DNA from: an uncultured Gammaproteobacteria bacterium
GTDB lineage: Bacteria; Patescibacteriota; Microgenomatia; Levybacterales; UBA12049
Direction of reading: 5' to 3'
Length of the DNA: 64,000 nucleotides
Assembly (NCBI GenBank): GCA_964515545.1
Contig: CAZERI010000003.1
Span: forward strand, 88,246-152,245
Part shown: positions 19,391 through 44,296 of the stretch, one piece after another
How the letters are laid out: every line of letters starts with the position of its first letter
Numbering within the stretch: position 1 is the first letter of the stretch
The notes under the pieces: model-generated
Seen by the model: only the letters and a program-made list of their open reading frames with translations
Database searches by the model: none
What the model was told of the DNA's origin: nothing
Position numbers and translations under genes: made by a program

Positions 19391-19407
19391 TCCTGCCAAA
19401 GGAGCAT

Positions 19408-20142: not shown

Positions 20143-20151
20143 TAAATAGCT

Positions 20152-20628: not shown

Positions 20629-20650
20629 CGCGTAGAGAAAGATATTAGAT

Positions 20651-23054: not shown

Positions 23055-23082
23055 GTCATAAATAATAAGCATCATAGAAATT

Positions 23083-23108
23083 AAACCTCGACGAGTCGAG
23101 GTTTTTTT
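23083..23108 (+). terminator. rho-independent terminator (AACCTCGAC/GTCGAGGTT stem + T7)
   Basis: aacctcgac-ga-gtcgaggtt followed by ttttttt, 30 nt after the stop of the preceding ORF. Confidence 0.6.
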
Positions 23109-23964
23109 GTACACTGTATCTATGATTGAAAAAGGAGTATTTGGCAAAAGGCTTGATACCTATTCATATGGCGACTTACATGTTCATACCAATTACAGTG
23201 ATTCTGCTCTTGCGTGTGATGGGACTGTTGCTCCTGAAAGACTAGTTGATCTTGCTGAAGAGAATGGGCATAGCTTTATAGGAATTACTGATCATGATAC
23301 GATTGCTTCAAGTGTACGGGGTAAGGAATATGCATTAAAGCAGGGGTATAATGTAGAAGTAATAGTTGGTGCTGAGGTATCAACTACAGAAGGTCATATT
23401 CTAGCTCTTAATTTACAGGAGAATGTTCCGTTTTGGTCTGGTTCAGCGGACACAGTCAGGACAATTCATAGGCAAGGAGGACTTGCAATTCCTGCTCATC
23501 CCTTCTATTCACTTACATCATCTATCGGAGAAAAAGGACTTACTCGTGTTGCACGTGATGAAGATCCTGAGGTCTATTGGGATGGTATAGAAGTTTTTAA
23601 TGCTGGGGCTAATGATTTTCGTTTTTATGAATGGGTAAGACATCAGACAGATGGGAATAGGGCTGCAAGAAGATTTTATAAGAATCATGAATCTGAGGGC
23701 TTATATGGTGCAGCAGTAGGAGGATCAGATACCCATACCTCAAGAGTAGGAAGGGCAGTTACTATTATTCCACCGGAAATGGATATTTATACTGCTATAA
23801 AGACGAATAAGACCGGAGTAATTATTACAAACATGAAAGAGGACTACTCACCTAAAGTCATCTTTGAAATTGATAGGAAAAGTAAGGCTCTAGAGAGATC
23901 AAGATATCAGATCTCACCAGAACAGAGATATTTTCCTAACCCATGGCCTCAGCTGGCAGTTTGA
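23107..23964 (+). CDS. PHP-domain (polymerase/histidinol-phosphatase-like) metal-dependent phosphoesterase
   Basis: YGDLHVHTNYSD ... GITDHDT ... PAHPF motifs of the PHP family; true start may be the internal MIEKG. Confidence 0.65.
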   Translation: MYTVSMIEKGVFGKRLDTYSYGDLHVHTNYSDSALACDGTVAPERLVDLAEENGHSFIGITDHDTIASSVRGKEYALKQGYNVEVIVGAEVSTTEGHILALNLQENVPFWSGSADTVRTIHRQGGLAIPAHPFYSLTSSIGEKGLTRVARDEDPEVYWDGIEVFNAGANDFRFYEWVRHQTDGNRAARRFYKNHESEGLYGAAVGGSDTHTSRVGRAVTIIPPEMDIYTAIKTNKTGVIITNMKEDYSPKVIFEIDRKSKALERSRYQISPEQRYFPNPWPQLAV

Positions 23965-23984
23965 GATGTTAATTGCTATAATAA

Positions 23985-24869
23985 GTGACTATGGCTAGTC
24001 AGGATTATTACCATACATTGGGGGTTTCTAAATCTGCAACAGCGGAAGAAATAAAAAAATCATACCGTAAATTAGCTCTCCAGTATCATCCCGATCGTAA
24101 CAAAACTAAAGAGGGAGAAGAAAAGTTCAAGGAAATAACCCAAGCCTATGAAGTTCTTTCAGATCCTCAAAAGCGACAAACGTATGACCAGTATGGAGCT
24201 GCAGCTTTTGAGCAGGGAGCTGGAGGAAGCGGTCCATTTGGGGGAGGGTATGGCGGATTTAATCAGCAAGGTCCGTTTAGCTACTCCTATTCAACTAATG
24301 GACAAGGTTTTGATTTCGGAGGTTTTTCAGATCCTTTTGAGATTTTTGAACAATTTTTTGGTGGAGCATCTCCATTTGGAGGACGTTCCCGCCGGCCAGC
24401 ATATTCACTTTCCCTAACTTTTATGGAGGCTATCAAGGGAACTGAAAAAGAGGTAATGATTGATGGAAAAAAACAAAAGATTAAAGTTCCTGCTGGAGTT
24501 GATACGGGGACAAGGATGCGTTTTGATACTTATGATGTGATTTTTGATGTTGCGTCTGATAAGAGGTTCCAAAGAGAAGGTTCTGATGTTATAACTGAGG
24601 AAGAAATCACTTTCCCTCAAGCAGTAATTGGTGGCGATCTTAAAGTGGATACCGTGGAAGGTCCTGTGACTATTAAAATTCCAGCTGGTACACAGCCTGA
24701 GACGCTTATTAGGCTGCGGGGTAAAGGAATTCAGCGCTTACGAAGTTCTGGGAAAGGTGATCATTACGTAAAGATCAAAGTACATATTCCCAAAACAATT
24801 ACTCGCAAGCAAAAAGAAATTCTTGAACAATTTGATACCGAAAGCTCCTCAAAAAAAAAGTGGTTTTAG
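23985..24869 (+). CDS. dnaJ: DnaJ-class co-chaperone (J-domain, G/F-rich region, C-terminal substrate-binding domains; no Zn-finger)
   Basis: [34 protein letters not shown] (HPD J-domain), G/F-rich stretch, CbpA/DnaJ-type C-terminus; the CxxCxGxG repeats are absent. Confidence 0.8.
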
Positions 24870-25309
24870 CTACTTTTACCAAGCTTCCTTTTGATCTCTT
24901 GAAGCTCAGCTTCAATTTGTTGGTCTCTCTTAGGAGTTTCAAGGACCCCAAATTTATTTACGATACCCTCCATTTTCCCTAGAGCATTTTGTCTCCGCTT
25001 CTCATCTCTTTGAACTGCAGCATCACGTTCTTCCTCTCTTTGCCTGTTTAACAGTGCCATCCTTTGAGCTTCAGCTTGGCGCGCTTGCTGTCCAATTAGA
25101 GTAGAATCATCAGCTGGTTTGTTCCCCACATCTCCAATTTTTTTTACTGCATTATCGAGTGCAGCGTTGGATTTTGCTTCAGACCTTTCAGTAGCCTCCT
25201 CGGCCCTCCTCAGCACATCATCGACTGAGTCTCGGCCAAAGACTCCTCTTCTCCATCTTTGAAAAATTCCGCCTGGTTTCTGTGAGCCATCTACTCCTGA
25301 TTCTGGCAT
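24866..25309 (-). CDS. hypothetical basic coiled-coil protein
   Basis: 147 aa, R/E/Q-rich, predicted helical; stop codon overlaps the dnaJ stop convergently. Confidence 0.35.
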
Positions 25310-25439: not shown

Positions 25440-25844
25440 ATGAAAAAAATGCCTGCCCGCATTTATACACTGCTTAGATTCTTTTTTGCTGTTCTATTTA
25501 TAACGTATATTTTTACGGTTAGTTCTCCATTTGTCTATGCTGCCTCATCGCCTTGTCCGCCTGATCAGGCTATAACTGAGGTTGGTTGTCTGCCGACAGA
25601 TCCTATTGCGTTTGTTTCCAGTTTTTATGGGATTGGCTTGGGTCTTATTGGGGGAGTTGCTTTGATTTTTATCATAATTGGAGCCTACGTCATCCTTACC
25701 TCCCGAGGTAATCCAACTCAAGTAAATGTTGGGAAAAGTTATATTTTCTATGCGATTTTAGGGTTACTCCTTGCGATATTTGGATACATCTTTATCGAGG
25801 TCGTTCTCGTTGATATTTTGCATATACCTGGATTTAGCCACTAA
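25440..25844 (+). CDS. secreted two-TM small protein with TrbC/VirB2-pilin-like topology (tentative)
   Basis: Sec signal peptide (...SPFVYA|ASSP), Cys pair (PCPPDQ...GCLP), then two hydrophobic helices separated by a short polar loop (TSRGNPTQVNVGKS). Confidence 0.4.
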   Translation: MKKMPARIYTLLRFFFAVLFITYIFTVSSPFVYAASSPCPPDQAITEVGCLPTDPIAFVSSFYGIGLGLIGGVALIFIIIGAYVILTSRGNPTQVNVGKSYIFYAILGLLLAIFGYIFIEVVLVDILHIPGFSH

Positions 25845-25850
25845 TTTATA

Positions 25851-28800
25851 ATGAAAAAAAATGTATTATCACTATTTTCGATCCTTACTCTTTTACTTAT
25901 CTTTTTTTCTCCTAATGTTCATGCACAGGTAACTCCTACTCCAACCCCTGCTTCCATTCCTGTCACTCTTGGCACTCAGCCATTACCAGCAGAAGGAGCG
26001 TGGATTATAGATCCAGAAGTAACAACAGTGGGTAAAAATGCTTCACGTTCAGGCATGCTTTTAGACTGGACGCTAAGAGACTATAAGTGGTCCTCAGATA
26101 CGAGTTATACGAATAATCCGCTTACTCCATTTTGGCTGATCATCCAAAGAATCGTATATTCTCTTTTCCTTTTTGTCCTTCTCGTTACGGCATTTATTCT
26201 TATCGTAACACGAGGAAAGAGTCTATCAGCGAAAAGATTTCTGCCCAGATTTCTTTTGGTAGTTCTTCTAGTTACTTTCTCTTTTTCATTAGTGCAGTTT
26301 CTTTATCAGATTGTAGATATTTTCCAGGGATTTTTTCTTAAGAATCCTAAAGGGGAGATTATCTCTTCTCATGATCTTCTCTTCATTGGTTTTGATTACC
26401 GTACTTTCCAAGGATTAAGAGTCTTTGGAGAATCATACAATGAGTCTGCCTTTATTTCACTCCTTCTCGTAAAGTTAACTTCATTCACTTACTATGTCAT
26501 GGCTATACTTCTGATTTTCAGAAAAATTATTTTATGGTTCTTAATAATTATTTCTCCTGTGTTTCCGTTATTATTGCTGTTCTACCCGTTGAGGAATACG
26601 GCAAAAATTTGGATTGGGGAATTTTTCCGTTGGCTCTTGTATGCACCTCTCTTTGCTATTTTACTTTCTGGACTAGTGAGATTATGGAGTACAGGATTGC
26701 CTCTTTTCTTTAGCTCTGTCGGAGTAGGGAAAGAGAGTAGTTCAATTTATCCAACTGCCGTCAATATCCTTTTAGGTGGGCCAGGCCAGCATATAGGAAT
26801 CAATAATAGCGTTAATCTTCCGGATACGTTTGCTCTTTATTTGGTAGCTCTTCTTATGCTGTGGGCAGTTATTATTCTTCCTTTTATCCTTTTGCAGATA
26901 TTCTTGGATTATATGATGGCCTTTAATAACCGTGATAATCCATTTATGAAGCAAATTCTCACGATGCTTAATAACAGACCTATTATCCCTTCAGCCCCTT
27001 CCACACCGCCTCCTCCTGTGGGAGCTGGTTTAGCACGCAATTTACCTTTTGCAAAACGCTTCTCAATTCCTAAGACCACAGGGATTGCCCGTGAGGTTCC
27101 ACGAGGAGCTGCTCAGACTATAACTCGTCCTACATTCACCCAAAGAAATACTCAGACAGAGATATCACGTCTGACCAATCTCTCAATTCCTACTATGAGG
27201 GATATTGCGCGTCTTGAAACGACGAAACTTTCTCATGATGTGAGGACTCAGCAAGAGATAGAAAGAACGCGCCAAAACCTGATCAATATTGCAAATCCGG
27301 CTTCTGTAACATCTGTGACTGAGCGGGAGAGAGTAAAAATGATCCATGATCGCTTAGTAACTGAAGGACAAAAAGGCAGCCAGGTTGCAGCATCTATTTT
27401 AAATGCAGCAAATACGTATAATACATATTCTTCCTCAATTTCTTCATCCTCGCAGTCTTCAGTTGCACAAGTGACCCAGCAAATGATTGAAAATCTATCT
27501 CATCCGATGACAATTATCTCAAAAAGGGACCAACAGAAAATTATTGAGATCCGGCAGGAATTAATTAAAGCATCTGATGCGGGGAATCAATTTGCTAAAA
27601 ATATTCTTACCTCTGTCAATAACTATACAACCAATCAAGTTCAGAATCTTCAGAAGACTCTCAATCAGCTTGCTAGTCCAGAGAAGATAACTGACAATAA
27701 AGACAGAGAAGTATTTACTACACTTCGTGAAAAGATAACCTCTGCAAGCAAATCAGGTAATCCACTGGCTACTCTTCTTAGCAAGACTCTTGAGAGTAGT
27801 ACCTCAACAGAACAAGTCAAAAAGATTCAGCAGGAGTTGATCGAGGCTAAGGCGCAAGGTAATCCATTGGCTACAGAGCTTCTTAAGACAGTATCAGTTA
27901 CTGATAAGACCTCTGAAAAAGATATGGAGAAGTTATATGAGACTCTGAAGGAAGAAAGTAAATCAGGAAACCCACTAGCCACCCTTCTTCTTAAAACGAT
28001 CTCTTCACAGGAAAAATCACAAGCAGCTTCATTCTCGGCAACAGCAAAATTAAAGTCAGGTGTTCTCCCTCAAGTAAATCGGATTCAGCAGGTATCGTTG
28101 GATGACTATGAGGCTGTCAAGAAGATGTGGACAGATAATTATAAGAATTTGGAAGTGCCAAATAGTCAGCAGACACGAAAACAATGGATTGATCAGGATA
28201 TCTCAAGTATCCAAGAGGCTATTAGCCTCCTTTCCTCCCCCAATCCTCAGGATGTAGAGAAAGGCATGCAACAAGTCTCTGATATCTTGCCTTTCCTTTT
28301 AATTGGAGGCTTTTCTCAGACGGAGATCATTGCCTACTTGAAGGCTAAGATGGAGGCAGGAAAGAGTGTAGTAGAGAATGTTTCAGAAAAAGAAGAGGAG
28401 GAAGAAACACTACTTAATGCAGAACGTGCAGCAAAAGAGGCAACCGGTCACTTGGCAGCATCTATTGAGATAAAGAATGATGAAGTAAAAGGGAGTGCCC
28501 CATCGGTACCAATCCCAGCTGAAAAAGTCATCATTCAGTCTCAAGCCAATGCTCCAATACAGATCCAGACTAGTACATACTCCCCAGTACAGGAAGTGCA
28601 ACTAGATTCTCCTTCTTCAGTTGTCTCCCAGCTTCGTCTTCCTCTGCCAACACTCCGTGATATAGCAAGCTTTGAGACAAAGAAAGAAGGAAGAACTGTC
28701 CAGGATCTCAAAAAACTTTTTGTTCAATTATCACATCCAGAGGATATAGCTTCTCCATCTGAACAAAGAAATCTTTTAAAGATTAAGCAAACACTTCAGG

Positions 28801-29879
28801 ATCAAGCTCAGAAAGGTGATAGCACTGCACAAATGATAATTAATGCGTTGGGATTATCACAGACAATGGATACAGTTGGTGAAAAGCATGATTTCCTAAT
28901 GACTCTTAAAACAATTCTTGATCCATCCCTTGCATCAGAGGATGATCAATCATATTACAGACAAGTACGTGATGAGTTGGTTAAAGCACGTCAAGAATCA
29001 GATGTTATCGCAACTCAAGTAATGAAGCTTGTAGATAAGATATCCCAGACGGAGACTGAGTCTATTATAAAACTTCTGCAGAATCTCCATGACCCTGAAC
29101 ATCTCATAGCTAATGAGAAAGATAAAGAGACATTCATTTCTTTGAGAAATAATCTCAAGTCTCAGAAAGCAACTAGTCAGGTGGCATCAAGTATTCTTAC
29201 TGCTACTCAGAATACAATTACGTCTGTCAGTGCCAACAAAATTCGTGTGCAGCTGCTCGAAAAGGCTTCACAGAAAGATCCATTGGCAACAAGTATTATG
29301 AAAGAATATATCACGCTTCCTAAGGAAACGATTCAAGAGATAAACAATCTCTATCAGACGATTCAGAAATCATCGGATCCGTTCTCTAAGCTACTACTTA
29401 AACTTCTTACTCAGCAGACAAAAAGAGCAAGAGGAGTTAGAGTAGAGCGATTCCCACGAGAAAATCGTATCCAAAAAGTGAGTCTTGATGATTATGAGCA
29501 GGTGAAACAGATGCTCTATGAAATGTATTTGCATGGGACAGTTCCGCCGGGAAGGAATGGTCAAGAACAGGCACGTGTGGATTGGATTACAGAGGAAAAG
29601 CAGCAAGTAGAGGAAGTTATTAACCTCCTTTCATCAGATGATATGAATAATGTCCAGCTAGGAATGACTAAGGTAAATGATATCCTTCCCTTTCTTCTCT
29701 TGGGCGGATTTTCCCAAAATGAAGTTCTTCAGTATCTGAGAGCCAAACAAGAAGCTGCGGGTATGGCTCTACAGACGCTAGAAGGTACAGAGGAAAAGGT
29801 TTTTGTTGAAAAGAAGGAGAATTCAATAAATCAGCAAAAAATGGCTGTTGAGAGTAATGAATCAGTAGAAAAGGAGTAA
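25851..29879 (+). CDS. giant polytopic membrane protein: signal peptide + ~6-TM VirB6/TrbL-like domain + ~950-aa repetitive helical C-terminal region
   Basis: Cleavable signal (…NVHA|QVTPTPTP), 6 hydrophobic helices between aa ~100-360, and a Pro-rich linker. Beyond that, a twofold super-repeat combines an RDIA motif, 4-5 GNPLATxLLKT-type helical repeats and a ~100-aa VSLDDYE...ILPFLLxGGFSQ module. Confidence 0.5.
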   Translation: MKKNVLSLFSILTLLLIFFSPNVHAQVTPTPTPASIPVTLGTQPLPAEGAWIIDPEVTTVGKNASRSGMLLDWTLRDYKWSSDTSYTNNPLTPFWLIIQRIVYSLFLFVLLVTAFILIVTRGKSLSAKRFLPRFLLVVLLVTFSFSLVQFLYQIVDIFQGFFLKNPKGEIISSHDLLFIGFDYRTFQGLRVFGESYNESAFISLLLVKLTSFTYYVMAILLIFRKIILWFLIIISPVFPLLLLFYPLRNTAKIWIGEFFRWLLYAPLFAILLSGLVRLWSTGLPLFFSSVGVGKESSSIYPTAVNILLGGPGQHIGINNSVNLPDTFALYLVALLMLWAVIILPFILLQIFLDYMMAFNNRDNPFMKQILTMLNNRPIIPSAPSTPPPPVGAGLARNLPFAKRFSIPKTTGIAREVPRGAAQTITRPTFTQRNTQTEISRLTNLSIPTMRDIARLETTKLSHDVRTQQEIERTRQNLINIANPASVTSVTERERVKMIHDRLVTEGQKGSQVAASILNAANTYNTYSSSISSSSQSSVAQVTQQMIENLSHPMTIISKRDQQKIIEIRQELIKASDAGNQFAKNILTSVNNYTTNQVQNLQKTLNQLASPEKITDNKDREVFTTLREKITSASKSGNPLATLLSKTLESSTSTEQVKKIQQELIEAKAQGNPLATELLKTVSVTDKTSEKDMEKLYETLKEESKSGNPLATLLLKTISSQEKSQAASFSATAKLKSGVLPQVNRIQQVSLDDYEAVKKMWTDNYKNLEVPNSQQTRKQWIDQDISSIQEAISLLSSPNPQDVEKGMQQVSDILPFLLIGGFSQTEIIAYLKAKMEAGKSVVENVSEKEEEEETLLNAERAAKEATGHLAASIEIKNDEVKGSAPSVPIPAEKVIIQSQANAPIQIQTSTYSPVQEVQLDSPSSVVSQLRLPLPTLRDIASFETKKEGRTVQDLKKLFVQLSHPEDIASPSEQRNLLKIKQTLQDQAQKGDSTAQMIINALGLSQTMDTVGEKHDFLMTLKTILDPSLASEDDQSYYRQVRDELVKARQESDVIATQVMKLVDKISQTETESIIKLLQNLHDPEHLIANEKDKETFISLRNNLKSQKATSQVASSILTATQNTITSVSANKIRVQLLEKASQKDPLATSIMKEYITLPKETIQEINNLYQTIQKSSDPFSKLLLKLLTQQTKRARGVRVERFPRENRIQKVSLDDYEQVKQMLYEMYLHGTVPPGRNGQEQARVDWITEEKQQVEEVINLLSSDDMNNVQLGMTKVNDILPFLLLGGFSQNEVLQYLRAKQEAAGMALQTLEGTEEKVFVEKKENSINQQKMAVESNESVEKE
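28066..28365 (+). repeat. internal protein-module repeat copy A (RIQQVSLDDYEAVKKM ... ILPFLLIGGFSQTEIIAYLKAKMEAG)
   Basis: ~100-aa module duplicated within the 1342-aa ORF; the nucleotide copies are diverged (ancient duplication). Confidence 0.55.
29448..29765 (+). repeat. internal protein-module repeat copy B (RIQKVSLDDYEQVKQM ... ILPFLLLGGFSQNEVLQYLRAKQEAA)
   Basis: Second copy of the module; same order of conserved residues (VSLDDYE, W, LLSS, GM..V.DILPFLL.GGFSQ.E...YL.AK). Confidence 0.55.
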
Positions 29880-29922
29880 GAGGAGACTTGCTCTTTCAAA
29901 GAAAATACTATTAAATAGAACT

Positions 29923-32673
29923 ATGCTTGGTAACCTGTTCAACCAACATAAAGATGTTATTTCCGATAAACCTGTAGTGGAACCGCCACATCCACAAGAT
30001 ATGGCCTCTTCACAAGGAGATGGTGTTTCGGCGACATCCCGCCTTGATCCTTCACTTCGTCAAAATCTTTCGGCGCTCTCCCATCTAGACGCCCGAATGA
30101 CTCAAGTTCTACATCATGCTCAAGATGAAGCAAAAAAAGTGCGTCATGAAAAAATTGAACCTGAGCAGCTGCTGTTAGGACTTTTATATGATGAGCAAAT
30201 ATTCAAGCTTCTTGAAGGCTTTTCTGTTGATGCGCCCAAATTAGCTAAAGAAATACAAAGTAAAGAAGCTATAGGTACCTTTGTAGGTTTGGCTACCCTA
30301 AGCGATGCAAGTACAAGTCTTTTTGAGGTCGCCTATCGTGATGTTCAGGCTCGTAACGTAACATTTATTGCTCCTGAGGATTTATTAGTCGCATTGTGTA
30401 ATAGCTCAAACGATGTGGCAAAAGTTCTAGATGAAAAGGGTGTTACCAGTAAACAGCTTGGAGAAAGACTCTCTAAATCTCCCACTTATACAACCGGTAA
30501 GAAATCGGTACTTGAAACGTATGCTATCGATCTAACCGAGGAAGCCAAAGCCGGAAAGCTGGACCCCATCGCTGGACGTGAGCGGGAAGAAGATCGTCTG
30601 ATCCATGTTCTGCTTCGCCGTACGAAGAATAATCCAATTATTATTGGAGAGGCAGGAGTTGGGAAGACAGCTATTGTGGAAGGGTTAGCTGAAGCAATTG
30701 TATCAGGAAAGACTCCATCTGGACTGAAAGATAAAAGAATTTACCAATTAGATCTGGCGTCTATGGTAGCGGGTGCTTCTCATAGAGGGGAATTTGAAGA
30801 ACGTCTTAAGGGTGTAATCAATGAAACGATTGCCTCTGAGGGGAAAGCTATCCTCTTTATTGACGAGATTCATACTCTTATTGGTGCTGGTGATACAGAT
30901 GGAGCACTCGATGCATCAAATATTATTAAACCCCATTTGGCTCGAGGGCATATGCAGATTATAGGTACTACGACCACAGCTGAGTATAGAAAGTATTTCG
31001 AAAAAGATAAGGCCTTTGAAAGAAGATTTCAGCCAATACTTTGCGATGAGCCTTCAGAAGAAGCAGCCGTTGAGATGCTAAAAGTTCTTCGTCCAAAATA
31101 TGAAAAATTTCATGGTGTAACTATCCCTGATGATACATTGGTTGCTTCGGTAAAGCTCTCTAAGAAATATATAGGAGAGAGGTATTTGCCAGATAAAGCA
31201 GTGGATCTTATTGATGAAGCTGCAGCAGATGTAAAGTTAGGAAGAATTGGACCTGCAAAGGCTGAGTCGGCTAAAGATAAAAAAGATGATGAGAAGCTAG
31301 CCAATAATGGAATGTCCGAAGCAACATCTCCAACACCTCAGGCAGCTGGCAATCAAGTAGTGAAATCAGACATAGAAAAGGTAGTCAGTAACTGGACTGG
31401 TATACCAATCACCAAGCTTACAGAAGATGAAAGTCAAAAGCTGCTTAAGCTTGAGGATAGGATCCACGATCGGCTTATAGATCAGGAAGAAGCAGTAGCA
31501 GCAGTAGCAGAGGCAGTAAGACGAGGGCGTATTGGCCTTGCTCCTGCGAATAGGCCGATTGCATCATTTATTTTCTTGGGTCCTACAGGAGTCGGAAAGA
31601 CGGAATTAGCCAAGACTCTTGCCGAGATTCTCTTTGGGCGGGATGATGCTCTTGTGAGGTTGGATATGAGTGAATATATGGAAAAACATGAAGTAGCTAA
31701 GCTCATAGGAGCACCTCCCGGATATGTGGGTTATGAAGAGGGAGGACAACTAACAGAAGCAGTACGTGCTAAGCCATACTCAATAGTTCTTCTTGATGAA
31801 GTTGAGAAAGCCCATCCGGATGTCTTTAATATACTGCTCCAGCTTCTGGAAGATGGACGTTTGACGGATAATAAAGGGAATACAATTTCTTTTAAAAATA
31901 CTATCGTGATTGCGACCTCAAATATTGGGAGTGCTCTTATCCAGCAACAACTAAGTGATAAGGCTCAAACATCTGACAGTCCCTCAGCAACACCTCAGTC
32001 ACAAGAACAATTTGACAAACAGTTTGCTGAATTATCAGGACTTGTAACAAATGAACTCCGTAAATTCTTTAGACCAGAACTCCTGAATCGTTTTGATGAT
32101 GTAGTTATATTTAAGCCTCTCAGGCGTCAAGATATGACTAGAATTGCTAAATTGGGTATTGCTAAGACTGCCAAACTTTTAGAAGAGCAAGGATATCATA
32201 TGCAGGCAACAGATAAAGCGTTAGCAGAATTAGCTCAGGAAGGGTATGATCCTGTATATGGCGCAAGACCTTTGAGAAGATTAATCCAATCATCGATTGA
32301 GAATCAGGTGGCTATGCTTCTTATAGGGAAAGAGTTTGTGGTAGGAGATACTATTGTTATTGATTATGATCAAGAGAAAAGTACATTTAGCTTCTCTAAA
32401 GGAAGTGGAGCCCCCAAGCTTGATACTAAGTCAGATGCGCAGGAAGCAGAAGAGACTGCCTCATCCCCTGACTCGACTCCTCCTACGACTCCTTCCCCTG
32501 TTGGTAGTGGTGAAGCACAAGCTATGCCTAATGATCATGCAGAAGGAGAGTTACCTAGTACTCCGCAGTTCGCAACTCCTGATTATAATCCGCCCTTTCT
32601 CAATACCGCTGATCACGTGAGTGATACTATGTCTGCTCCTACATCTTCTGATGCAGTTGCTAGCGCTTCTTAG
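29923..32673 (+). CDS. Hsp100/Clp-family two-ring AAA+ ATPase, ClpC-like (double Clp_N repeat, short linker), with S/T/P-rich C-terminal tail
   Basis: Two Clp_N repeats, D1 Walker [11 protein letters not shown]2 Walker [10 protein letters not shown], sensor/Arg motifs (GARPLRR), short inter-domain linker; ~90-aa low-complexity tail. Confidence 0.8.
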
Positions 32674-32687
32674 AAAAGACTTCTAAT

Positions 32688-32716
32688 TTGAGTTTTACCT
32701 CGTAACTTCCTATACT
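32688..32716 (+). promoter_or_regulatory. candidate sigma70-like promoter (TTGAGT-N17-TATACT)
   Basis: TTGAGT 32688-32693, 17-nt spacer, TATACT 32711-32716, 22 nt before the small membrane protein gene. Confidence 0.3.
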
Positions 32717-32738
32717 AGAATAGATTAATTGTCACTAT

Positions 32739-33068
32739 ATGTCTGCCTATTTTTTCTTGCCTTTTTATTTTCTTTCGTTTTGGTTTGGTGAAGCTCCTGT
32801 TAGCATACTTCGCCATTTTCTTGAGATTAATAAGGCTTTCTTTCGCTTCTTCTCCATCTCTCTTCTCTTAAGAACTTTTTTTCAGCCTATTAAAAATGAA
32901 TATCGTAAAGGACTGGTTGGTTTTTCTATTGGGATGGGAATGGTAGTAAAGACGATGGTTATTCTCGCTTCTCTTATTCTCTTTATTCCAATTTTGCTCC
33001 TAGAGATATTACTTTTAGGAGGATTTTTAATCTTTCCTTTAGTAACGCTAGCGTTATTGATTTGGTGA
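32739..33068 (+). CDS. small integral membrane protein (3 TM), translationally coupled to the downstream ATPase
   Basis: 109 aa, hydrophobic; stop 4 nt before the start of the next gene. Confidence 0.4.
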   Translation: MSAYFFLPFYFLSFWFGEAPVSILRHFLEINKAFFRFFSISLLLRTFFQPIKNEYRKGLVGFSIGMGMVVKTMVILASLILFIPILLLEILLLGGFLIFPLVTLALLIW

Positions 33069-33072
33069 TACT

Positions 33073-35475
33073 ATGGACCATCATTTTATAGCATTTTACC
33101 GTCTCTATCATAATATCCTGATTCGATTCCTTAGGATTTCTATCCCAGTTGTATTAACACTGGCAGTTATTATGGGTAATTTCTCTCATTCTTCGCCGAC
33201 TTTCTTTCTTGCTTTGTTCAATATTTTTGTAATGATTGAGATATTTTATCGGTATAAGATCAGTTTGGTCCAGTCAAAAAAGATAGTGCCGGAGGTAGAA
33301 GAGAAAGATGCACTCCATGTGATGAGTCTCCAGGCTCTCTCATCGATGCATGCATCTTCTCTGGCATATGATGTAGTTAAAGACTTACTGAGGTATCCGC
33401 AAGTCCACTTTTTTCTGGAAAGGGCAGCAATCTCTCCTCAAGAATTAGTTAAGAATGATTTAGGGAATGCACTTCTTCCTCAAGAAGCATATTCTTTAGT
33501 AAGGTCAATTAATGGAAAAAGAATCATTACAGTTGATATTCTGGCCTCATATTTATTACTGAGTGAAGAAAAAACGCAACTACTTTTTAACAAGAAATTG
33601 AAACCTAAAGATATATTGGCAATATTACAATGGACTCGGCTTATTTATCCACAAGAAGAAGAACATCAACGTTTCCATATTGAAGGAAACGGCGGGGGCC
33701 TTGGAGAAAGTTTAGTAATTGGTTGGACTCCTGAGACTAAAAACTACACACGAAATTTTACTAATAGTCTAACGGAGCATGATGTTTCTATTGTGGGTAG
33801 AGAAAAAGAATATGAATTAATTAAGGAGGTTCTTTCAAAGCAGGAAAATAATAATCTGGTGTTAGTAGGGGAAGCGGGAGTGGGGAAAGAACAGCTAATC
33901 CAGAAACTGGCACTCGACAGCTATAGCGGGAGGATACATAGAGGGCTTGCTTCCAAGACAATTTTGGAGCTGTTAGTCGGAACATTACTTGCGGGCGCAA
34001 CAACTCAAGGTGATTTGCAGGCCCGTATTGAAGCAATTATTGCAGAGGTGTCTCATGCTCAGAATATCATTCTTTATATCCCTGATTTCCAAAATATGAT
34101 TGGGGGCGGAACTTTTTCACTAGACTTATCGGGGGCATTAGCCCCTTACCTTAAAAATGGTACGATCCCGATTATTGCCAGTATGACTGAAGGAGCGTAT
34201 AAAACCTATCTAGAGAGAAGCTCCCTTAATCAGTTGTTCTCTCCGATAAAAATAGCTGAGGTTAATGAGGATCTGGCTCAGCTTATGGTAATGGAAAAAA
34301 CACAAGAGATAGAGAAAAAGTCTTCTGTTATTGTTACATACTCTGCATTAGTCGAATCAGTCAGATATGCCGACCGCTATAGCCAAAGTATGGTGTTGCC
34401 AGGGAGTGCGATTGCTCTCCTATCGGACGCGGTAAGCGGAGTACTATTGACGGATGCTCCTATCTATCCTCAGTCAAAAAGGCGGTTATTAGAAAGAGAT
34501 GCTGTGGTTAAGCTTGTTGAACAAAAGACTAAAATTGCTCTATCTGAACCGACTCAAGAAGAAAAAAGCCTCCTTCTTCATTTAGAAGATGTTCTGCATA
34601 ATCATATTATTGGCCAAGATGCAGCTGTACATGTTCTAAGTGAGGCAATGAGAAGGTTACGAGTTGGGATAGAAGATAGAAAACGGCCTATCTCATTTCT
34701 CTTTTTAGGACCCACGGGAGTTGGTAAAACAGAAACAGCAAAGACACTGGCTAATACTTATTTTGGAGGAGAAGCCACTATGATCAGGTTTGATATGAGT
34801 GAATACGCTGATGAAGAAGGACAACGAAGATTACTTGGGTCTCTTCCAGGACAAGGCGAGGAGAGAGGAGAACTTACTGAGCAGATACGAGACCATCCAT
34901 ACTCACTGATCCTTCTTGATGAATTCGAAAAGGCACATACCTCGATTCGTGACCTATTTTTACAGATACTAGAGGATGGAAGATTAACAGATAACAAAGG
35001 GAAAACGATTTCATTTATTAATACCATTATTATTGCTACCTCTAATGCTGGATCTGAATTTATCCATGATGCAATCACGAAAGGAAGAATAGTTGATAAG
35101 CAATTTGAAAATGATTTATCAGAATATCTCCAGTCTCATAATATTTTTAAACCTGAACTTCTCAACAGATTTGATGCTGTAGTGACATTTAAACCTCTTA
35201 CTGAGACAGAGGTTCATACTATTGCTGGGCATCTACTCAGTGAACTCAAGAAAAAGCTTCTAGAGAAAGATATTACTCTTGAAATTGATGATGCTGTTTT
35301 AACTAAAGTGGGCAAGGAAGCATACAACAAAGAAATGGGAGCTCGTCCCATCAGGAGATATATCCAAGATACTATAGAAGATCTACTGTCACAAAAACTG
35401 CTTACATCATCGGTCACAAGAGGTAATCACGTGAGGCTCGCTGTAGATGCAAATAATTCTTTTGTTATTGTATAG
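33073..35475 (+). CDS. membrane-anchored Hsp100/Clp-like AAA+ ATPase with degenerate D1 Walker A
   Basis: Two N-terminal TM helices; Clp_N-like repeats; D1 GEAGVGKEQ (Walker-A Ser/Thr replaced by Glu); D2 GPTGVGKTE intact; sensor-2 GARPIRR. Confidence 0.7.
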   Translation: MDHHFIAFYRLYHNILIRFLRISIPVVLTLAVIMGNFSHSSPTFFLALFNIFVMIEIFYRYKISLVQSKKIVPEVEEKDALHVMSLQALSSMHASSLAYDVVKDLLRYPQVHFFLERAAISPQELVKNDLGNALLPQEAYSLVRSINGKRIITVDILASYLLLSEEKTQLLFNKKLKPKDILAILQWTRLIYPQEEEHQRFHIEGNGGGLGESLVIGWTPETKNYTRNFTNSLTEHDVSIVGREKEYELIKEVLSKQENNNLVLVGEAGVGKEQLIQKLALDSYSGRIHRGLASKTILELLVGTLLAGATTQGDLQARIEAIIAEVSHAQNIILYIPDFQNMIGGGTFSLDLSGALAPYLKNGTIPIIASMTEGAYKTYLERSSLNQLFSPIKIAEVNEDLAQLMVMEKTQEIEKKSSVIVTYSALVESVRYADRYSQSMVLPGSAIALLSDAVSGVLLTDAPIYPQSKRRLLERDAVVKLVEQKTKIALSEPTQEEKSLLLHLEDVLHNHIIGQDAAVHVLSEAMRRLRVGIEDRKRPISFLFLGPTGVGKTETAKTLANTYFGGEATMIRFDMSEYADEEGQRRLLGSLPGQGEERGELTEQIRDHPYSLILLDEFEKAHTSIRDLFLQILEDGRLTDNKGKTISFINTIIIATSNAGSEFIHDAITKGRIVDKQFENDLSEYLQSHNIFKPELLNRFDAVVTFKPLTETEVHTIAGHLLSELKKKLLEKDITLEIDDAVLTKVGKEAYNKEMGARPIRRYIQDTIEDLLSQKLLTSSVTRGNHVRLAVDANNSFVIV

Positions 35476-35493
35476 GTACCTTTTCTTGACAAC

Positions 35494-36564
35494 TTGCTGG
35501 TATCCCTCTACTCTAATAATGCTGCCATGAAGAAAAGACACTCAGTACGTACTAGGGCTCGTTCCAAAAGTAAGACCCATCGCCGTAAGCTTCATCATCG
35601 GGTACTTTCTTTCTTTAAAGGGGATGGCGGAATCTATGTGATTTTCGTTCTAGCAACTGTTATGGCAGGTGCATTTGCCTTAAGCGGAGGGCTCCTTCCT
35701 AGCCTTAATCAGAATCCTACTGCTTCATCTGAGGTGACTATCGATCCAGACTCTGCTAAACAGAGCTCAGAAAGTGCTTTACAGCTTGTTGATATAAAAA
35801 TAAAGCCGAGTGACACTCCTGTTCCGACTCCAACTCCGACCAAAGTAGTTACTCCTACTCCTCAGGCTTGTCTTAACAAAATAGCTCTCAATCTTGTCTT
35901 GGACGTATCTGCCTCAATGAATAATGATGATAAGATCCGTCAGCTCAATACTGCAATGAAGAACTTGGTCGATCAATTAAAAGATGATACCGTAGTCGGT
36001 GCAGTAACGTTTGCGGGGCTTACTTCTTTTCCTAATACGGGAGGGTCAATAACTCAACTCCCTTTTACCAAATATAAAGATAATAAAAAATTAGTTAGTG
36101 ATAAGCTTACCAAACTTACTGCTTATAATGGGGGAGAGACTGACGGAACATATATGCGTAATGCATTCCAGAGGTCACTTAATAATCTTAACGTTGATCA
36201 GGTAACCTACGCAAACCAGGGTTATAATTTCGTCACTATTGTATTTACAGACGGAGTACCTGAAACAAAAATATGGGATGATGATTGTGTCGTACAGGCT
36301 AATGGATCTAATCCAGTTTGTTTTGCGCGTAAACAAGATCCACGTATATCTCCTGATCTAACCTCAACTATGAAAGGAAAATCTAGTAAGGTATATTCAG
36401 TGGGGATTTACTCCGGACCGCGTGAGACGCAGACAGTAATCTACAATGAGGCAAAGAAACTCTTAAGTGCTATTGCTTCTAAATCAACATATGCAAAAAA
36501 TAGTAATAGTCCTTCAGCAATTGACAGCATGTTTAAAGACGTGCTGAATTCTGTCTGCCAATAA
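35494..36564 (+). CDS. membrane-anchored von Willebrand factor A (vWA) domain protein
   Basis: K/R-rich cytoplasmic N-terminus, one TM, TPVPTPTPT linker, complete MIDAS (DVSASM, ETDGT, FTDGVPE); the start could alternatively be MKKRHS at 35527. Confidence 0.6.
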   Translation: MLVSLYSNNAAMKKRHSVRTRARSKSKTHRRKLHHRVLSFFKGDGGIYVIFVLATVMAGAFALSGGLLPSLNQNPTASSEVTIDPDSAKQSSESALQLVDIKIKPSDTPVPTPTPTKVVTPTPQACLNKIALNLVLDVSASMNNDDKIRQLNTAMKNLVDQLKDDTVVGAVTFAGLTSFPNTGGSITQLPFTKYKDNKKLVSDKLTKLTAYNGGETDGTYMRNAFQRSLNNLNVDQVTYANQGYNFVTIVFTDGVPETKIWDDDCVVQANGSNPVCFARKQDPRISPDLTSTMKGKSSKVYSVGIYSGPRETQTVIYNEAKKLLSAIASKSTYAKNSNSPSAIDSMFKDVLNSVCQ

Positions 36565-37866: not shown

Positions 37867-39318
37867 ATGCCAAACGAAAATCAATCACATATCTTTTATC
37901 CTCCAGTCGTAGCTGTTTTAGGTCATGTTGACCATGGTAAGACAACTCTCCTTGATGCTATCCGTCAAACATCTATTGCTGAGCGTGAGCATGGTGGTAT
38001 CACCCAAAAAATTGGTGCTTCCAGCGTCGAGATCCTCAATGATGGCAAACCACGGAGGATTACCTTCATTGATACCCCAGGACATGAGGCTTTTTCCCAG
38101 ATGCGTAGTCGCGGAGCTCTAGCAGCGGATATAGGCCTATTGATAATCTCAAGTGTTGATGGGGTAATGCCCCAAACAAGAGAGAGTATTAATGTTTTAA
38201 AGGCATCAGGTATTCCTATGATTGTCGTTCTCACAAAATCAGATCTTCCTACTAAAAATCCAGAAAAGGTTAAGGGACAAGTGCTCCGTGAAGGGATTAT
38301 GCTTGAGGGAATGGGTGGAGATGTTCCGGTTATTGAGGTAGCTGCTAAAACGAACCATAATATCAAAGAATTACTGGATCTTATTCTTCTGGTGGAGGAA
38401 GTGCAGCAGTCTTCTCATCCCCGTTCTGTTAGTCCTGGAAATCCTTTACGTGCTATTGTTATCGAGTCACGATTGGATCAGAAAGCAGGTCCCCGTGCAA
38501 CTCTTGTTATTAAAGACGGTAAGATGATGCCACGCCAAGAAGCCTTTGATGAGAATGGATCGTTTAAAGTGAGGTCCATCATGAACGATGCAGGTAAAAT
38601 GCTTCAAGAAGCAACTATCGGAGACGCCGTTGAGGTTTTAGGATTTCTGAAAGTACCAGCTGTGGGGAGTATTATTGGGGACAAACCTTCTAGTAAAAAT
38701 CAGAGAGAAGAAAGCCTGAGGAAAGAATTTGCTTATTCTCCTTCGGCAAATCAGGAAGAAATCCCAATTATTTTAGTAGCTGATTCGCAGGGATCAGTCG
38801 AAGCTATTACCCATGCTCTTCCAGAAAAAATTAATGTTCTAGAGGAAAAAACCGGTGAAATGAGTGAAAGTGACGTGCTTCATGCTAAATCTACAGGTGC
38901 AATTATTATCGGTTTTAACTCTAAAATGAGACCTGAGGTTATGAAGCTAGCACGTACCGAAAAGGTACTTATGAAAAATTATAATATCATTTATGAACTT
39001 TTAGATGAGCTGGCTGATGTATTGGAAGGAAAACGGCTTTCACAAATTGAAGAAATTTATGGGACAGCTACTATTTTGGCAAAGTTTCCCTTCGAGAAGA
39101 CTTTTGCCTTAGGGATAACAGTTACTGATGGCCGAATTGCACGTGGAGATAAGATCAGAATTCTAAGAGGTGAAGATATTATAGGTGAGTCACAGGTGAG
39201 TTCTCTCCGTATAGGTAAGAACCCTACTTCAAAGGTTGAGAAGGGGCATGAAGCAGGCATAGTTATTACACCTATGCTTGACTTTCAAGCCGGAGATGTG
39301 GTACTATCCCATGAATAA
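37867..39318 (+). CDS. infB: translation initiation factor IF-2 (short form starting at the G domain)
   Basis: VVAVLGHVDHGKTTLLDAIR, DTPGHEAF, TKSD G-motifs; 483 aa without the N-terminal extension. Confidence 0.9.
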   Translation: MPNENQSHIFYPPVVAVLGHVDHGKTTLLDAIRQTSIAEREHGGITQKIGASSVEILNDGKPRRITFIDTPGHEAFSQMRSRGALAADIGLLIISSVDGVMPQTRESINVLKASGIPMIVVLTKSDLPTKNPEKVKGQVLREGIMLEGMGGDVPVIEVAAKTNHNIKELLDLILLVEEVQQSSHPRSVSPGNPLRAIVIESRLDQKAGPRATLVIKDGKMMPRQEAFDENGSFKVRSIMNDAGKMLQEATIGDAVEVLGFLKVPAVGSIIGDKPSSKNQREESLRKEFAYSPSANQEEIPIILVADSQGSVEAITHALPEKINVLEEKTGEMSESDVLHAKSTGAIIIGFNSKMRPEVMKLARTEKVLMKNYNIIYELLDELADVLEGKRLSQIEEIYGTATILAKFPFEKTFALGITVTDGRIARGDKIRILRGEDIIGESQVSSLRIGKNPTSKVEKGHEAGIVITPMLDFQAGDVVLSHE

Positions 39319-39329: not shown

Positions 39330-40388
39330 ATGGATAATCAAGCGCTTCAACAAATTAAAGATACTATAGCATCAAGTCAGCTGGTCTCAATTGCTGTATC
39401 ACAGAACCCAACTATTGATCAGATGGCTGCTGCCCTCTCTCTCTACCTAAATTTTTCTTCCCAAGGTAAAAGAGTTACTGTTGTTTCACCAACTGAGCCT
39501 ATTGTGGAGCTCTCTTCACTTGTTGGTATTGATAAAGTAAAAAGTTCAAATGAAGGAACAGGGGGCGATCTCGTTGTTTCTTTCCCTTATCGTGAAGGTG
39601 AAATTGAAAAAGTCTCCTACACTATAGATAATGGCCAGCTCAATATTGTAGTTAAAGCTGGAGCCAACGGTCTTACTTTTTCTGAGCAGGATGTCCTTTT
39701 TAAACGCGGAGCTGATAAGCCTGATCTTCTCGTAACAGTAGGAGTTCAGCGTCTCTCTGATATTGGGGGATTATTTCCTCAAGACGCTCTTACCGATGTA
39801 ACAATCATTAATATTGATAACAGTAGTCAGAACGAAGGATTTGGCGGAATGGTTCTTGTCTCGCCTAAGTTCTCCTCTCTCTCAGAACAGGTAGCTGATT
39901 TAATGCTTAACCTTGGATATGAAGTAGATGTCGATGAATCACAAAATCTCCTTTCAGGTATTATTAACGCTACCAATAATTTCCAGAATCCAAATACGTC
40001 ATATTTGGCATTTGAAATAGCATCAATTTTTATGAAGCGTGGTGCAGTCCGTTCAGTTCGTTCTCCTCAACCTGCAGCTCAGCAAAGACAGTTCCAACCT
40101 CAAGCACGACCACAACAGCGTCAGCAAATACAGCCACAGCAAAGTCCATCTCGTCAGAATGATAGACAGGTTCGTCGTGATGCAATCCGTGAGGCGTTAA
40201 AGACGCAGTCTCAGAACCGTCAAGATCAGTTACGCCGTGAAGATCGTAACAACCAGCCTCGTCCACAGCAGCAAGCACAACCTCAACAGCTTCAACCACA
40301 GCCTCAGCAGGAGACTACAACTCCCTCACAAAAACCACCTTCTGATTGGTTAACGCCAAAAGTGTACAAAGGTTCAACTAACGTCTAA
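39330..40388 (+). CDS. hypothetical protein, possibly a degenerate DHH-family (NrnA-like) fold, with Q/R/P-rich C-terminal tail
   Basis: Its N-terminus (VSIAVSQNPTIDQMAAALSL) aligns by eye with the NrnA motif-I region (HxxPDxDxxGS) but catalytic residues are substituted. It occupies the infB-rpsO slot where rbfA/DHH genes sit in other bacteria. A ~100-aa PQQ/RQ low-complexity tail follows. Confidence 0.3.
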   Translation: MDNQALQQIKDTIASSQLVSIAVSQNPTIDQMAAALSLYLNFSSQGKRVTVVSPTEPIVELSSLVGIDKVKSSNEGTGGDLVVSFPYREGEIEKVSYTIDNGQLNIVVKAGANGLTFSEQDVLFKRGADKPDLLVTVGVQRLSDIGGLFPQDALTDVTIINIDNSSQNEGFGGMVLVSPKFSSLSEQVADLMLNLGYEVDVDESQNLLSGIINATNNFQNPNTSYLAFEIASIFMKRGAVRSVRSPQPAAQQRQFQPQARPQQRQQIQPQQSPSRQNDRQVRRDAIREALKTQSQNRQDQLRREDRNNQPRPQQQAQPQQLQPQPQQETTTPSQKPPSDWLTPKVYKGSTNV

Positions 40389-43168: not shown

Positions 43169-44296
43169 ATGTTGGATACTGCTCTCCCGACAATTACTCC
43201 ATCAAACACACCCCCTGCAGATCTTTCTGATAAAGGTGAGTCTGTAGATCAGATTAGAAAACTGGGTGAACGGGTAGAAAAGACAGAACTTCCTGATCTT
43301 CTCAAACAAAACCTCCTAGAGCGAATCTCACGATTAGCTCTTATTAGAGCAAGTGCCGGATTTATGAGTGCTAATTACATCTTGGAATATGAAAATACCT
43401 CAACGTATGTAAATTGGATAGTCGGTCTTCCATGGCAGAGACAGAGCGCAGATACACTAGACCTAGTTAAAGCCAAACAAATTATGGATAAAAATCATTA
43501 CGGGTTAGTTACTATTAAGGAAAGAATATTAGACTACCTAGCAACTCTTATTTTGAATATGAAAGAAGGTAATCACAAAGCAGTTCAAAGAGCGCCAATC
43601 CTCTGCTTAGTAGGGTTGGCAGGAACTGGAAAAACAACGTTAGCTAAGTCTATTGCAGAAGCATTAGGGAAGCAGTTTGAACGTATTCCCTTTGGAGGAA
43701 TGGCAGATTCAAGGGCGCTGCGCGGACAGTCCAAAGCATTTCCTGATAGTGAGCCTGGATATGTTATCAAGAAACTCTTCCATGCTCAGACAAGTAATCC
43801 AGTGATGCTCTTGGATGAATTAGATCGTGTTACTGAATCTGCACGAGCTGATATCATGGGTGTTTTAGTCGAGTTATTAGACCCTGAGCAGAACTTTGCT
43901 TTTACTGATCATTACATAGATTATGCCTATAACATGTCAAATGTGTTATTTGTCGCAACAGCAAATAATACAACTAATATCTCAACAGCAGTCCTTGATC
44001 GTCTAGAGATCATTCAGATGCCTTCCTATACAGACGAGGAGAAAATTGTGATCGCGAAAGTTTATCTATTTAACAAAATTAGAAGTGAAGCGGGCCTTTC
44101 AGAACAACAGCTGGTGATTGATGAAGCAGTATGGCCTGGAATCATTAGACCATTGGGATTTGACTCTGGGATTCGTTCGCTGGAACGTACCATTGAAGGA
44201 ATGTGTCGGCGTGTTGCTCGGCGGATTGTAGAAGGAAAGGTGCAGACTGTTAGGATAACAGATATGAATCTAAAAGAGTTTTTACCGACATGGTAA
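43169..44296 (+). CDS. Lon-like AAA+ ATPase module lacking the S16 peptidase domain
   Basis: Aligns by eye with Lon from the coiled-coil/linker (VGLPWQRQSADTLDLVKAKQIMDKNHYGLVTIKERILDYLA) through Walker A (GLAGTGKTT), Walker B (MLLDELDRV), LEVLDPEQN-like (VELLDPEQNFAFTDHY) and sensor-2 (SGIRSLERTIEGMCRR). It stops exactly at the AAA+/protease boundary. Confidence 0.75.
   Translation: MLDTALPTITPSNTPPADLSDKGESVDQIRKLGERVEKTELPDLLKQNLLERISRLALIRASAGFMSANYILEYENTSTYVNWIVGLPWQRQSADTLDLVKAKQIMDKNHYGLVTIKERILDYLATLILNMKEGNHKAVQRAPILCLVGLAGTGKTTLAKSIAEALGKQFERIPFGGMADSRALRGQSKAFPDSEPGYVIKKLFHAQTSNPVMLLDELDRVTESARADIMGVLVELLDPEQNFAFTDHYIDYAYNMSNVLFVATANNTTNISTAVLDRLEIIQMPSYTDEEKIVIAKVYLFNKIRSEAGLSEQQLVIDEAVWPGIIRPLGFDSGIRSLERTIEGMCRRVARRIVEGKVQTVRITDMNLKEFLPTW

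Follow-up and report, generated by a model that had tools for sequence, protein, structure and literature searches.

The 64,000-nucleotide stretch of DNA analysed here, referred to as the window, comprises positions 88,246 to 152,245 of contig CAZERI010000003.1 (GenBank assembly GCA_964515545.1). Between a heat-shock operon and a run of housekeeping genes, it encodes a pilin-like protein, an extended VirB6/TrbL-like protein (VirB6L), a cytosolic Hsp100 ATPase (Clp1), a 109-residue membrane protein (tm109), a membrane-anchored Hsp100 (memClp), and a membrane protein with a vWA domain (Table 1). The first three genes are called the trio below, and tm109 and memClp the memClp pair. All of the open reading frames (ORFs) described in an earlier sequence-only reading were recovered by ORF calling. 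Its descriptions of the encoded proteins also held: the first ATPase is ClpC-like, with both Walker A motifs intact and a C-terminal tail rich in Ser, Thr and Pro; the second has two N-terminal transmembrane (TM) helices and an altered Walker A motif in its first ring (D1), and is closely preceded by the 109-residue ORF; and the vWA protein has a single TM segment, a stalk rich in Pro and Thr, and motifs of the metal ion-dependent adhesion site (MIDAS) type. The same reading had singled out an ~11-kb co-directional block, 25440–36564. The genes are co-directional, but this segment is not special, as the run extends from 19354 to ~50569 and its sole break is the 147-amino-acid (aa) minus-strand gene between dnaJ and the pilin gene. 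The gene neighbourhood proved to be conserved in relatives, and the block is composed of two separable conserved modules and one variable gene, joined to hrcA-grpE-dnaK-dnaJ.

Table 1. Positions, within the window, of the genes and sequence features of the locus
Feature	Position	Strand	Description
VirB2/TrbC-type pilin-like protein	25440–25844	+	134 aa; signal peptide and two hydrophobic helices
VirB6L, extended VirB6/TrbL-like polytopic protein	25851–29879	+	1342 aa; weak TrbL match
~40-aa helical repeat, 9 copies	27288–29303	+	VirB6L tail aa 480–1151; consensus IANPESVTDPTEKEKYTKLKEKLVEASQKGNPLATSILSA
Clp1, cytosolic two-ring ClpC-derived Hsp100	29923–32673	+	916 aa; Pfam and PDB sequence matches
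Clp1 S/T/P-rich tail	32407–32670	+	88 aa, 41% S+T+P
tm109, membrane protein	32739–33068	+	109 aa; conserved N-terminal half, hydrophobic C-terminal half
memClp, membrane-anchored two-ring Hsp100	33073–35475	+	800 aa; Pfam AAA_2, ClpB_D2-small
memClp N-terminal TM hairpin	33112–33249	+	
memClp D1 Walker A	33868–33894	+	GEAGVGKEQ, aa 266–274
vWA protein, single-pass membrane protein	35494–36564	+	VWA_2 match, E 5e-8
Promoter, near-consensus	19354–19390	+	TTGACA-17-TATGAT; heads hrcA operon, overlaps CIRCE-like repeat
CIRCE-like inverted repeat	19364–19390	+	2 mismatches
Heat-shock operon	19354–24869	+	hrcA, grpE, dnaK, 169-aa ORF, PHP-domain protein, dnaJ (Pfam)
hrcA	from 19354	+	
grpE	from 20152	+	
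dnaK	from 20651	+	
169-aa ORF	from 22545	+	
PHP-domain protein	from 23107	+	
dnaJ	from 23985	+	
147-aa gene	24866–25309	-	between dnaJ and pilin
Downstream genes	36625 onwards	+	nusA, infB, 352-aa ORF, rpsO, pnp, Lon-like AAA protein, RNase J, ftsK

Linkage of the pilin, VirB6L and Clp1 genes

The pilin, VirB6L and Clp1 genes form a unit: they are gained, lost and transposed together, and a domain is shared within the trio. Related loci were collected with two seeds, the memClp-specific N-terminal half for 80 genome loci and the VirB6L membrane domain for 80 metagenome loci; individual contigs were added, and the fetched loci were annotated locally with phmmer. Counts from the VirB6L-seeded metagenome set rest on 76 loci, and the presence of the trio was scored in the 39 genome loci in which the interval from dnaJ to memClp is fully visible. 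The complete trio is present in 20 of these 39 loci and entirely absent from 19, and no locus contains a partial set. The two states interleave on a memClp tree, a rough neighbour-joining tree of one protein, on which Fitch parsimony counts at least nine changes. In loci that lack the trio, the interval from dnaJ to memClp contains unrelated soluble proteins. The gaps between dnaJ and tm109 in these loci were checked for diverged trio genes, and none were hidden there. In the VirB6L-seeded metagenome set, VirB6L is immediately preceded by the pilin gene in 63 of 65 loci and has Clp1 downstream in 46 of 46.

The whole gene set is appended to or inserted into the heat-shock operon. All 39 metagenome loci in which the sequence reaches far enough upstream have dnaK or dnaJ ahead of the trio. 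The trio follows dnaJ in 31 loci and is positioned between dnaK and dnaJ in six, as well as in L091 and L173. It remains intact next to an inverted RNase J gene in L105 and in a context without dnaK in L174, where the pilin gene is an uncalled ORF, the presence of which was confirmed. The trio occurs without memClp in L090, L105 and L174, and the memClp pair occurs without the trio in 19 loci; since each is found alone, the genes do not constitute a single 11-kb machine. A Daviesbacteria locus, L089, is a second case of pilin and VirB6L genes adjoining chaperone genes.

Additional genes accompany the trio in some relatives. A 460-aa single-pass protein is encoded between VirB6L and Clp1 in 11 loci. 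It was considered as a detached form of the window VirB6L tail, to which it is not similar (BLASTP E 4.8), and it is a separate protein instead. The gene that follows Clp1 encodes a secreted protease in 24 of 30 loci: an S8 subtilase in 18, often with a separate fervidolysin-type prodomain protein, and an M4 thermolysin-like enzyme in six (for example L069 7280–9626, L053 7273–9561 and L091 15022–16740). Proteases of both kinds carry an SdrD_B-like domain and are often translationally coupled to Clp1. The clade of the window has no protease gene at this position.

The pilin of the window matches T4SS_pilin with an E-value of 0.0016 and a score of 18.9 bits against a cut-off of 26.6, and the NCBIfam Mbov_0395 pilin-like family with an E-value of 2.5e-5, below the curated cut-off. 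Its orthologues reach E-values of 1e-5 or better, and the layout of a signal peptide followed by two TM helices, as read from hydropathy, fits a VirB2/TrbC-type pilin. VirB6L can be divided into a signal peptide, a membrane domain of ~360 aa, and a long helical tail. The membrane domain, which is ~50% identical across Microgenomatia, matches TrbL over residues 112–279 (E 3.1e-5; 24.3 bits against a cut-off of 25.9), and homologues match TrbL or TrbL_3, mostly weakly. Neither the window ORFs of 100 aa or more that were scanned with Pfam nor the genes called in related loci carrying precomputed Pfam matches include a match to VirB4 or VirD4, and no VirB3, VirB4 or VirD4 gene is located within 8–10 kb in any locus with precomputed Pfam annotation.

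Long-tailed, extended VirB6 proteins are known from Rickettsiales. The VirB6L tail of the window (aa 440–1342; 27168–29879) is an internal tandem duplication of a ~440-aa unit, one copy of which is present in most relatives; each unit contains an LSIPTMRDIAxxET motif, repeats, and then a 'VSLDDYE...ILPFLLxGGFSxxE..YLKAK' module. The nine copies of the ~40-aa helical repeat are interleaved with two copies of this conserved module. The AlphaFold model of the tail is all-helical, with a predicted local distance difference test score (pLDDT) of 79. A Foldseek search with the model against the PDB returned no fold match (best E 0.86) and no functional lead, and one repeat copy formally matches DUF3144, a family of unknown function.

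The repeat is shared between VirB6L and Clp1. In some relatives Clp1 is 1227–1513 aa long, with a C-terminal extension built of the ~40-aa repeat of the VirB6L tail; the tail of one such Clp1 (L018) matches the VirB6L tail of the window with a BLASTP E-value of 1e-10. A hidden Markov model built iteratively from one repeat of the window was run on the six-frame ORFs of 172 loci. It matched VirB6L ORFs (42 in the genome set and 79 in the metagenome set, with 1–17 copies each) and long Clp1 ORFs (13 and 7, respectively, with 5–8 copies each), and nothing else among these ORFs. On the tree, the Clp1 proteins with repeats group in a single clade, and they have no TM segment. As an ATPase of this kind must be cytosolic, their repeats work in the cytoplasm, and the shared repeats place the VirB6L tail, the position of which is ambiguous from hydropathy alone, in the cytoplasm too, by inference, as in classical VirB6.

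Two divergent Hsp100 proteins and their surroundings

Clp1 contains the Pfam domains Clp_N, AAA, AAA_lid_9, AAA_2 and ClpB_D2-small. The sequence-only reading left its class to be settled by family models. Clp1 proved to be ClpC-derived: its best solved relative is ClpC of Staphylococcus aureus (PDB: 6em9), which aligns to it end to end in one continuous alignment with an E-value of 8e-209. The NCBIfam ClpB model gives the highest score, but at 894 bits it is below the 1232-bit cut-off, and it matches in two separate pieces that skip the M-domain. The Walker A motifs of the two rings are GEAGVGKTA (aa 242–250) and GPTGVGKTE (aa 553–561). Walker A and B of both rings and the GYVG loop of the second ring (D2) are invariant among 78 Clp1 sequences, so that both ATPase rings are kept and D2 is predicted to be competent for threading. 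The D1 pore loop reads SHRG, with a His in place of the Tyr in 75 of the 78 sequences (His287 in the window).

Clp1 is missing two elements that would link it to pathways of general proteostasis. In 48 of 70 family members the D1 lid and D2 are joined by a 30-aa linker, compared with ~80 aa in S. aureus ClpC, and in the window the M-domain segment is reduced to a short low-complexity linker, leaving no M-domain. The M-domain is the handle by which DnaK or MecA control ClpB and ClpC. The ClpP-docking loop, for which the earlier reading had suggested a search, is also missing: 'RFAGFGG' of ClpC aligns to 'KAQTSDS', and the ClpP-type tripeptide [ILVMFA]G[FL] is absent from 66 of 67 Clp1 family members. 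Because both the M-domain and the ClpP loop have been lost, Clp1 is probably neither a canonical disaggregase nor a protease partner.

The tm109 protein has the N-terminal motif TFFKPWKNEYRxGLVGFS and no Pfam or NCBIfam match. In 74 of 78 loci its gene is immediately followed by memClp; in the window, 4 nt separate its end from the memClp ATG, and across loci the spacing ranges from -4 to +4 nt. The hydrophobic helices of memClp span residues 14–35 and 40–59 according to hydropathy, and residues 15–37 and 43–63 in the AlphaFold model. The model (pLDDT 86, predicted template modelling score 0.74) is composed of a TM hairpin, a helical N-domain and two rings, and matches ClpC1, ClpC and ClpB in Foldseek with an E-value of ~1e-47 and target TM-scores of 0.83–0.86. 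No Peptidase_M41 match was found in Pfam. The family is narrow: a set of 1.84 billion proteins, clustered at 50% identity, contains 73 representatives of its N-terminal 240 aa.

The D1 ring of memClp is degenerate. Among 88 memClp sequences, the Walker A motif is G-x-x-G-x-G-K-E, with Glu at the last position in 73, and the Walker B motif is hhYIP[DE]F (ILYIPDFQ in the window), in which the Mg-binding Asp is replaced by Pro. The pore loops of both rings contain no Tyr, Phe or Trp, that of D2 reading PG[EQ]G[ED]ERGE. In contrast to D1, the Walker A and B motifs, sensor 1, arginine finger and sensor 2 of D2 are invariant. Judged from these motifs, D1 is probably a pseudo-ATPase, whereas D2 is expected to retain ATP hydrolysis. 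The degenerate D1 and the lack of aromatic residues in the pore loops make substrate threading of the classical type unlikely. A D1 Walker A of the GK[T/S] type is kept in 16 of 23 trio-less loci and in 4 of 39 trio-bearing loci (L004–L088). Fisher's test gives p = 2e-6 for this correlation, uncorrected for phylogeny.

The vWA protein is a clade-specific surface protein, an add-on rather than a core part of the locus. Its homologues occur in only eight related loci, all in or near the clade of the window, and elsewhere the slot between memClp and nusA is filled by varied unrelated genes, often on the opposite strand. The protein has a basic N-terminus (13 Lys and Arg, no Asp or Glu), a TM segment at residues 43–69, and the MIDAS-consistent motifs DVSAS, GGETDGT and FTDG. 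No PDB entry is related to it in sequence.

ORF calling and family searches identify the window as a housekeeping chromosome segment of ~40% GC without a compositional break. The block was also considered as a mobile element, a reading rejected on the grounds of the flat GC content across the window and the exclusively housekeeping flanks. The closest protein relatives are all from metagenome-assembled genomes (MAGs) of Candidatus Levybacteria/Levyibacteriota (Patescibacteria, Microgenomates group). Many ENA MAG records with a Levybacteria-type locus are titled Gammaproteobacteria, and others Lysobacterales or Methylomirabilota; they are probably mislabelled bins or contaminant contigs.

The CIRCE-like repeat at hrcA, which has two mismatches, is the only such match in the window, where 0.03 would be expected. 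Of 18 such sites in related loci, 17 are located at hrcA, and a search of these loci found none before the pilin, Clp1 or tm109 genes. Because the TTG codon listed as the hrcA start overlaps both the promoter-like site of this gene and the CIRCE-like repeat (19354–19390), the true start codon must be further downstream.

Several further genes were noted in the flanks. A 375-aa AAA+ protein (43169–44296, +) has a Lon-type lid domain without the Lon protease domain, and holds its position after pnp in most related loci. The 352-aa ORF between infB and rpsO (39330–40388, +), with no Pfam match and a weak NrnA-like match (E 0.001), occupies the position where rbfA and truB usually sit and is kept there in nearly all related loci. 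IF-2 (37867–39318, +) is only 483 aa long, without the usual N-terminal region, and has the same length in relatives. A class I lysyl-tRNA synthetase (tRNA-synt_1f; 8188–10446, +) is fused to a C-terminal B3_4 domain, an unusual combination; B3_4 domains are of the kind that occurs in the beta subunit of phenylalanyl-tRNA synthetase. On the minus strand, at 53716–56818, a sortase gene adjoins that of a 785-aa protein with a weak Baseplate_J-like match (E 2e-6).

A possible Hsp100 motor and the alternatives to it

The trio (module 1, 25440–32673) may encode a membrane-associated apparatus of pilin, VirB6L and a Clp1 motor. We favour, tentatively, the reading that Clp1 is a dedicated Hsp100 motor, which would presumably dock on the cytoplasmic tail of VirB6L and presumably act on the pilin or on exported clients. 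A Clp1 hexamer would be recruited to the helical-repeat tail, the same repeats being carried by the Clp1 of one clade, and would supply pulling or unfolding force at VirB6L. It could move pilin subunits out of or into the membrane, or unfold substrates for the VirB6-like channel, a job that may be likened to that of VirB4 in canonical type IV systems or of HSP101 in the Plasmodium export complex PTEX. The secreted S8 and M4 proteases could be clients or co-functioning products. The small membrane protein and the membrane-tethered Hsp100 (module 2, 32739–35475) occur independently of module 1; memClp most likely performs D2-driven conformational work at the membrane, and not classical threading, in the remodelling or quality control of membrane or exported proteins. 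More ambitiously, the locus could specify an undescribed envelope apparatus of Levybacteria and related Microgenomatia, in which a dedicated ClpC-derived Hsp100, in place of VirB4, powers a VirB2-like pilin and a VirB6-like channel, the helical repeats serve as a tether, expression is from the HrcA operon, secreted proteases are cargo or partners, and a second new Hsp100 family, membrane-anchored, without pore-loop aromatics and with a pseudo-ATPase D1, works alongside; we consider this complete scheme unlikely.

Several observations weigh against a dedicated Clp1 motor. The synteny is weak evidence, because the order of the downstream housekeeping run (nusA, infB, rpsO, pnp, the Lon-like AAA protein and RNase J) is equally conserved. 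Block loss of adjacent genes is mechanically easy, and the count of nine changes depends on the rough one-protein tree. Since the repeat-bearing Clp1 proteins belong to one clade, the transfer of the repeat between VirB6L and Clp1 was probably a single event, retained since. The topology of VirB6L, with six hydrophobic segments after the signal peptide, is ambiguous, and the minus-strand gene parts dnaJ from the pilin gene, so that co-transcription with dnaK is not assured in the window. The location of Clp1 in the dnaK operon and its identity of 66–75% among relatives, compared with ~50% for VirB6L and ~45% for memClp, fit a housekeeping chaperone. In the Daviesbacteria locus (L089 1836–11165, GCA_016186955.1), three T4SS_pilin genes and VirB6L are followed by groES-groEL, with no Clp1. 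Finally, a type IV secretion system (T4SS) of the VirB4 type has been reported elsewhere in Microgenomatia genomes, near dnaA (PMC12102498), and the pilin and VirB6L may belong to it.

The locus could instead be a housekeeping proteostasis regulon, with Clp1 as a reduced chaperone of the ClpB/ClpC type, memClp as a membrane quality-control ATPase, and pilin and VirB6L hitchhiking or co-regulated under stress. The setting agrees with this: all 39 loci have hrcA-grpE-dnaK-(dnaJ) directly upstream, some have the trio placed between dnaK and dnaJ, CIRCE-like sites are confined to hrcA, the region also encodes secreted proteases and a Lon-like AAA protein, Clp1 is conserved at the level of a core chaperone, and the Daviesbacteria pilin and VirB6L genes are also next to chaperone genes, groES-groEL. 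A general chaperone should, however, outlast the loss of pilin and VirB6L, yet no partial state was observed in 39 and 46 loci, and about half of the Levybacteria loci have no Clp1 at the site, with no displaced copy seen. Clp1 lacks the M-domain needed for coupling to DnaK as well as the ClpP loop, the trio stays intact outside the dnaK context, and the repeat that is private to VirB6L and Clp1 is left unexplained. We therefore regard a housekeeping role as somewhat unlikely. It is improbable that the pilin and VirB6L are the remote VirB2 and VirB6 of the VirB4-powered T4SS encoded near dnaA (PMC12102498), with Clp1 as an accessory chaperone, for example in effector unfolding. The match of the VirB6L membrane domain to TrbL and TrbL_3, the reported scarcity of VirB6 homologues in Microgenomatia, where VirB4 is common, and the reported location of VirB2-like pilins away from virB4 in many assemblies (PMC12102498) are in line with such an arrangement; set against them are the absence of VirB4, VirB3 and VirD4 within 8–10 kb in the Pfam-annotated loci and the lack of the trio in about half of the Levybacteria loci, which would leave the T4SS of these organisms without VirB6.

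The single surface machine proposed in the sequence-only reading, in which pilin, channel and both ATPases are joined by the vWA adhesin as the tip, is largely refuted by the distribution of the genes and is very improbable. The tight, co-directional spacing in the window, the non-canonical character of both ATPases, and the predicted extracellular domain of the vWA protein with its MIDAS-type motifs speak for it, but vWA is found in only eight relatives in a slot that is variable, memClp is found without the trio and the trio without memClp, and a promoter-like site is located between Clp1 and tm109 in the window. What stands of the proposal is the unit of pilin, VirB6L and Clp1 on the one hand and the pairing of tm109 with memClp on the other; the joint machine and the role of vWA do not.

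Comparison with known systems

The components of the locus all come from known superfamilies; the novelty lies in how they are combined, in the repeat shared by VirB6L and Clp1, and in two divergent variants of Hsp100. A large part of bacterial diversity consists of candidate phyla radiation (CPR) bacteria, whose surface structures and interactions with hosts are poorly known. The locus gives a genomic position for a VirB6-like protein and a pilin in Microgenomatia, and ties both to an Hsp100 and to the heat-shock operon. A literature search turned up neither an account of Clp/Hsp100 genes linked to T4SS-like genes in Patescibacteria nor one of a membrane-anchored bacterial Hsp100, and Clp and DnaK are not mentioned in the T4SS survey (PMC12102498).

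Clp1 shares with ClpC an N-domain, two AAA+ rings with Walker A and B motifs, and the GYVG pore loop of D2. It differs from ClpC in having no M-domain and no (V/A)GF loop, in the His that replaces the D1 pore Tyr, in its C-terminal S/T/P-rich tail or repeat array, and in being always encoded beside a pilin and a VirB6-like protein. Like ClpB/Hsp104, it has no ClpP loop, its gene is near dnaK, dnaJ and grpE, and the ClpB model gives its best NCBIfam score. However, the long coiled-coil M-domain that mediates Hsp70 coupling in ClpB/Hsp104 is missing from Clp1, and ClpB/Hsp104 has Tyr in both pore loops, whereas D1 of Clp1 has His.

Module 1 resembles the VirB4-VirB6-VirB2 core of T4SSs, including the MPF-FATA-like systems of Patescibacteria (PMC12102498), in that genes for a VirB2-like pilin and a VirB6/TrbL-like protein adjoin that of a hexameric ATPase. 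This ATPase, however, is an Hsp100 and not VirB4, no VirB3, VirB8, VirD4 or relaxase gene is near module 1, and the Patescibacteria T4SS is encoded near dnaA, whereas module 1 is in the dnaK operon.

The organization of memClp, with an N-terminal TM anchor and cytosolic AAA+ rings, is similar to that of FtsH and Msp1. Torsins likewise have no aromatic residues in their pore loops and are paired with a membrane partner. Unlike these proteins, memClp is a two-ring Hsp100 with a ClpC-like fold (target TM-score ~0.85) and no protease domain, and it keeps the arginine finger of D2 while D1 is degenerate; in FtsH, a single AAA+ module is followed by an M41 zinc-protease domain. memClp is thus a useful natural variant for asking what Hsp100 rings do without threading.

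The PTEX complex of Plasmodium (HSP101, PTEX150 and EXP2) is a precedent for a ClpB-type Hsp100 that serves a membrane or secretion apparatus and not general proteostasis, and the HSP101 structures 6e10 and 6e11 are among the PDB matches of Clp1. The same principle of a dedicated Hsp100 is represented by Hsp93/ClpC at the chloroplast TIC and by ClpV in the type VI secretion system. The membrane partners in PTEX and module 1 are not homologous, and the analogy would be purely functional. If Clp1 and VirB6L are physically coupled, Clp1 would be a bacterial instance of an Hsp100 committed to a membrane channel, as hitherto known from PTEX and chloroplast import, and would provide an alternative way of energising components of the VirB2/VirB6 type.

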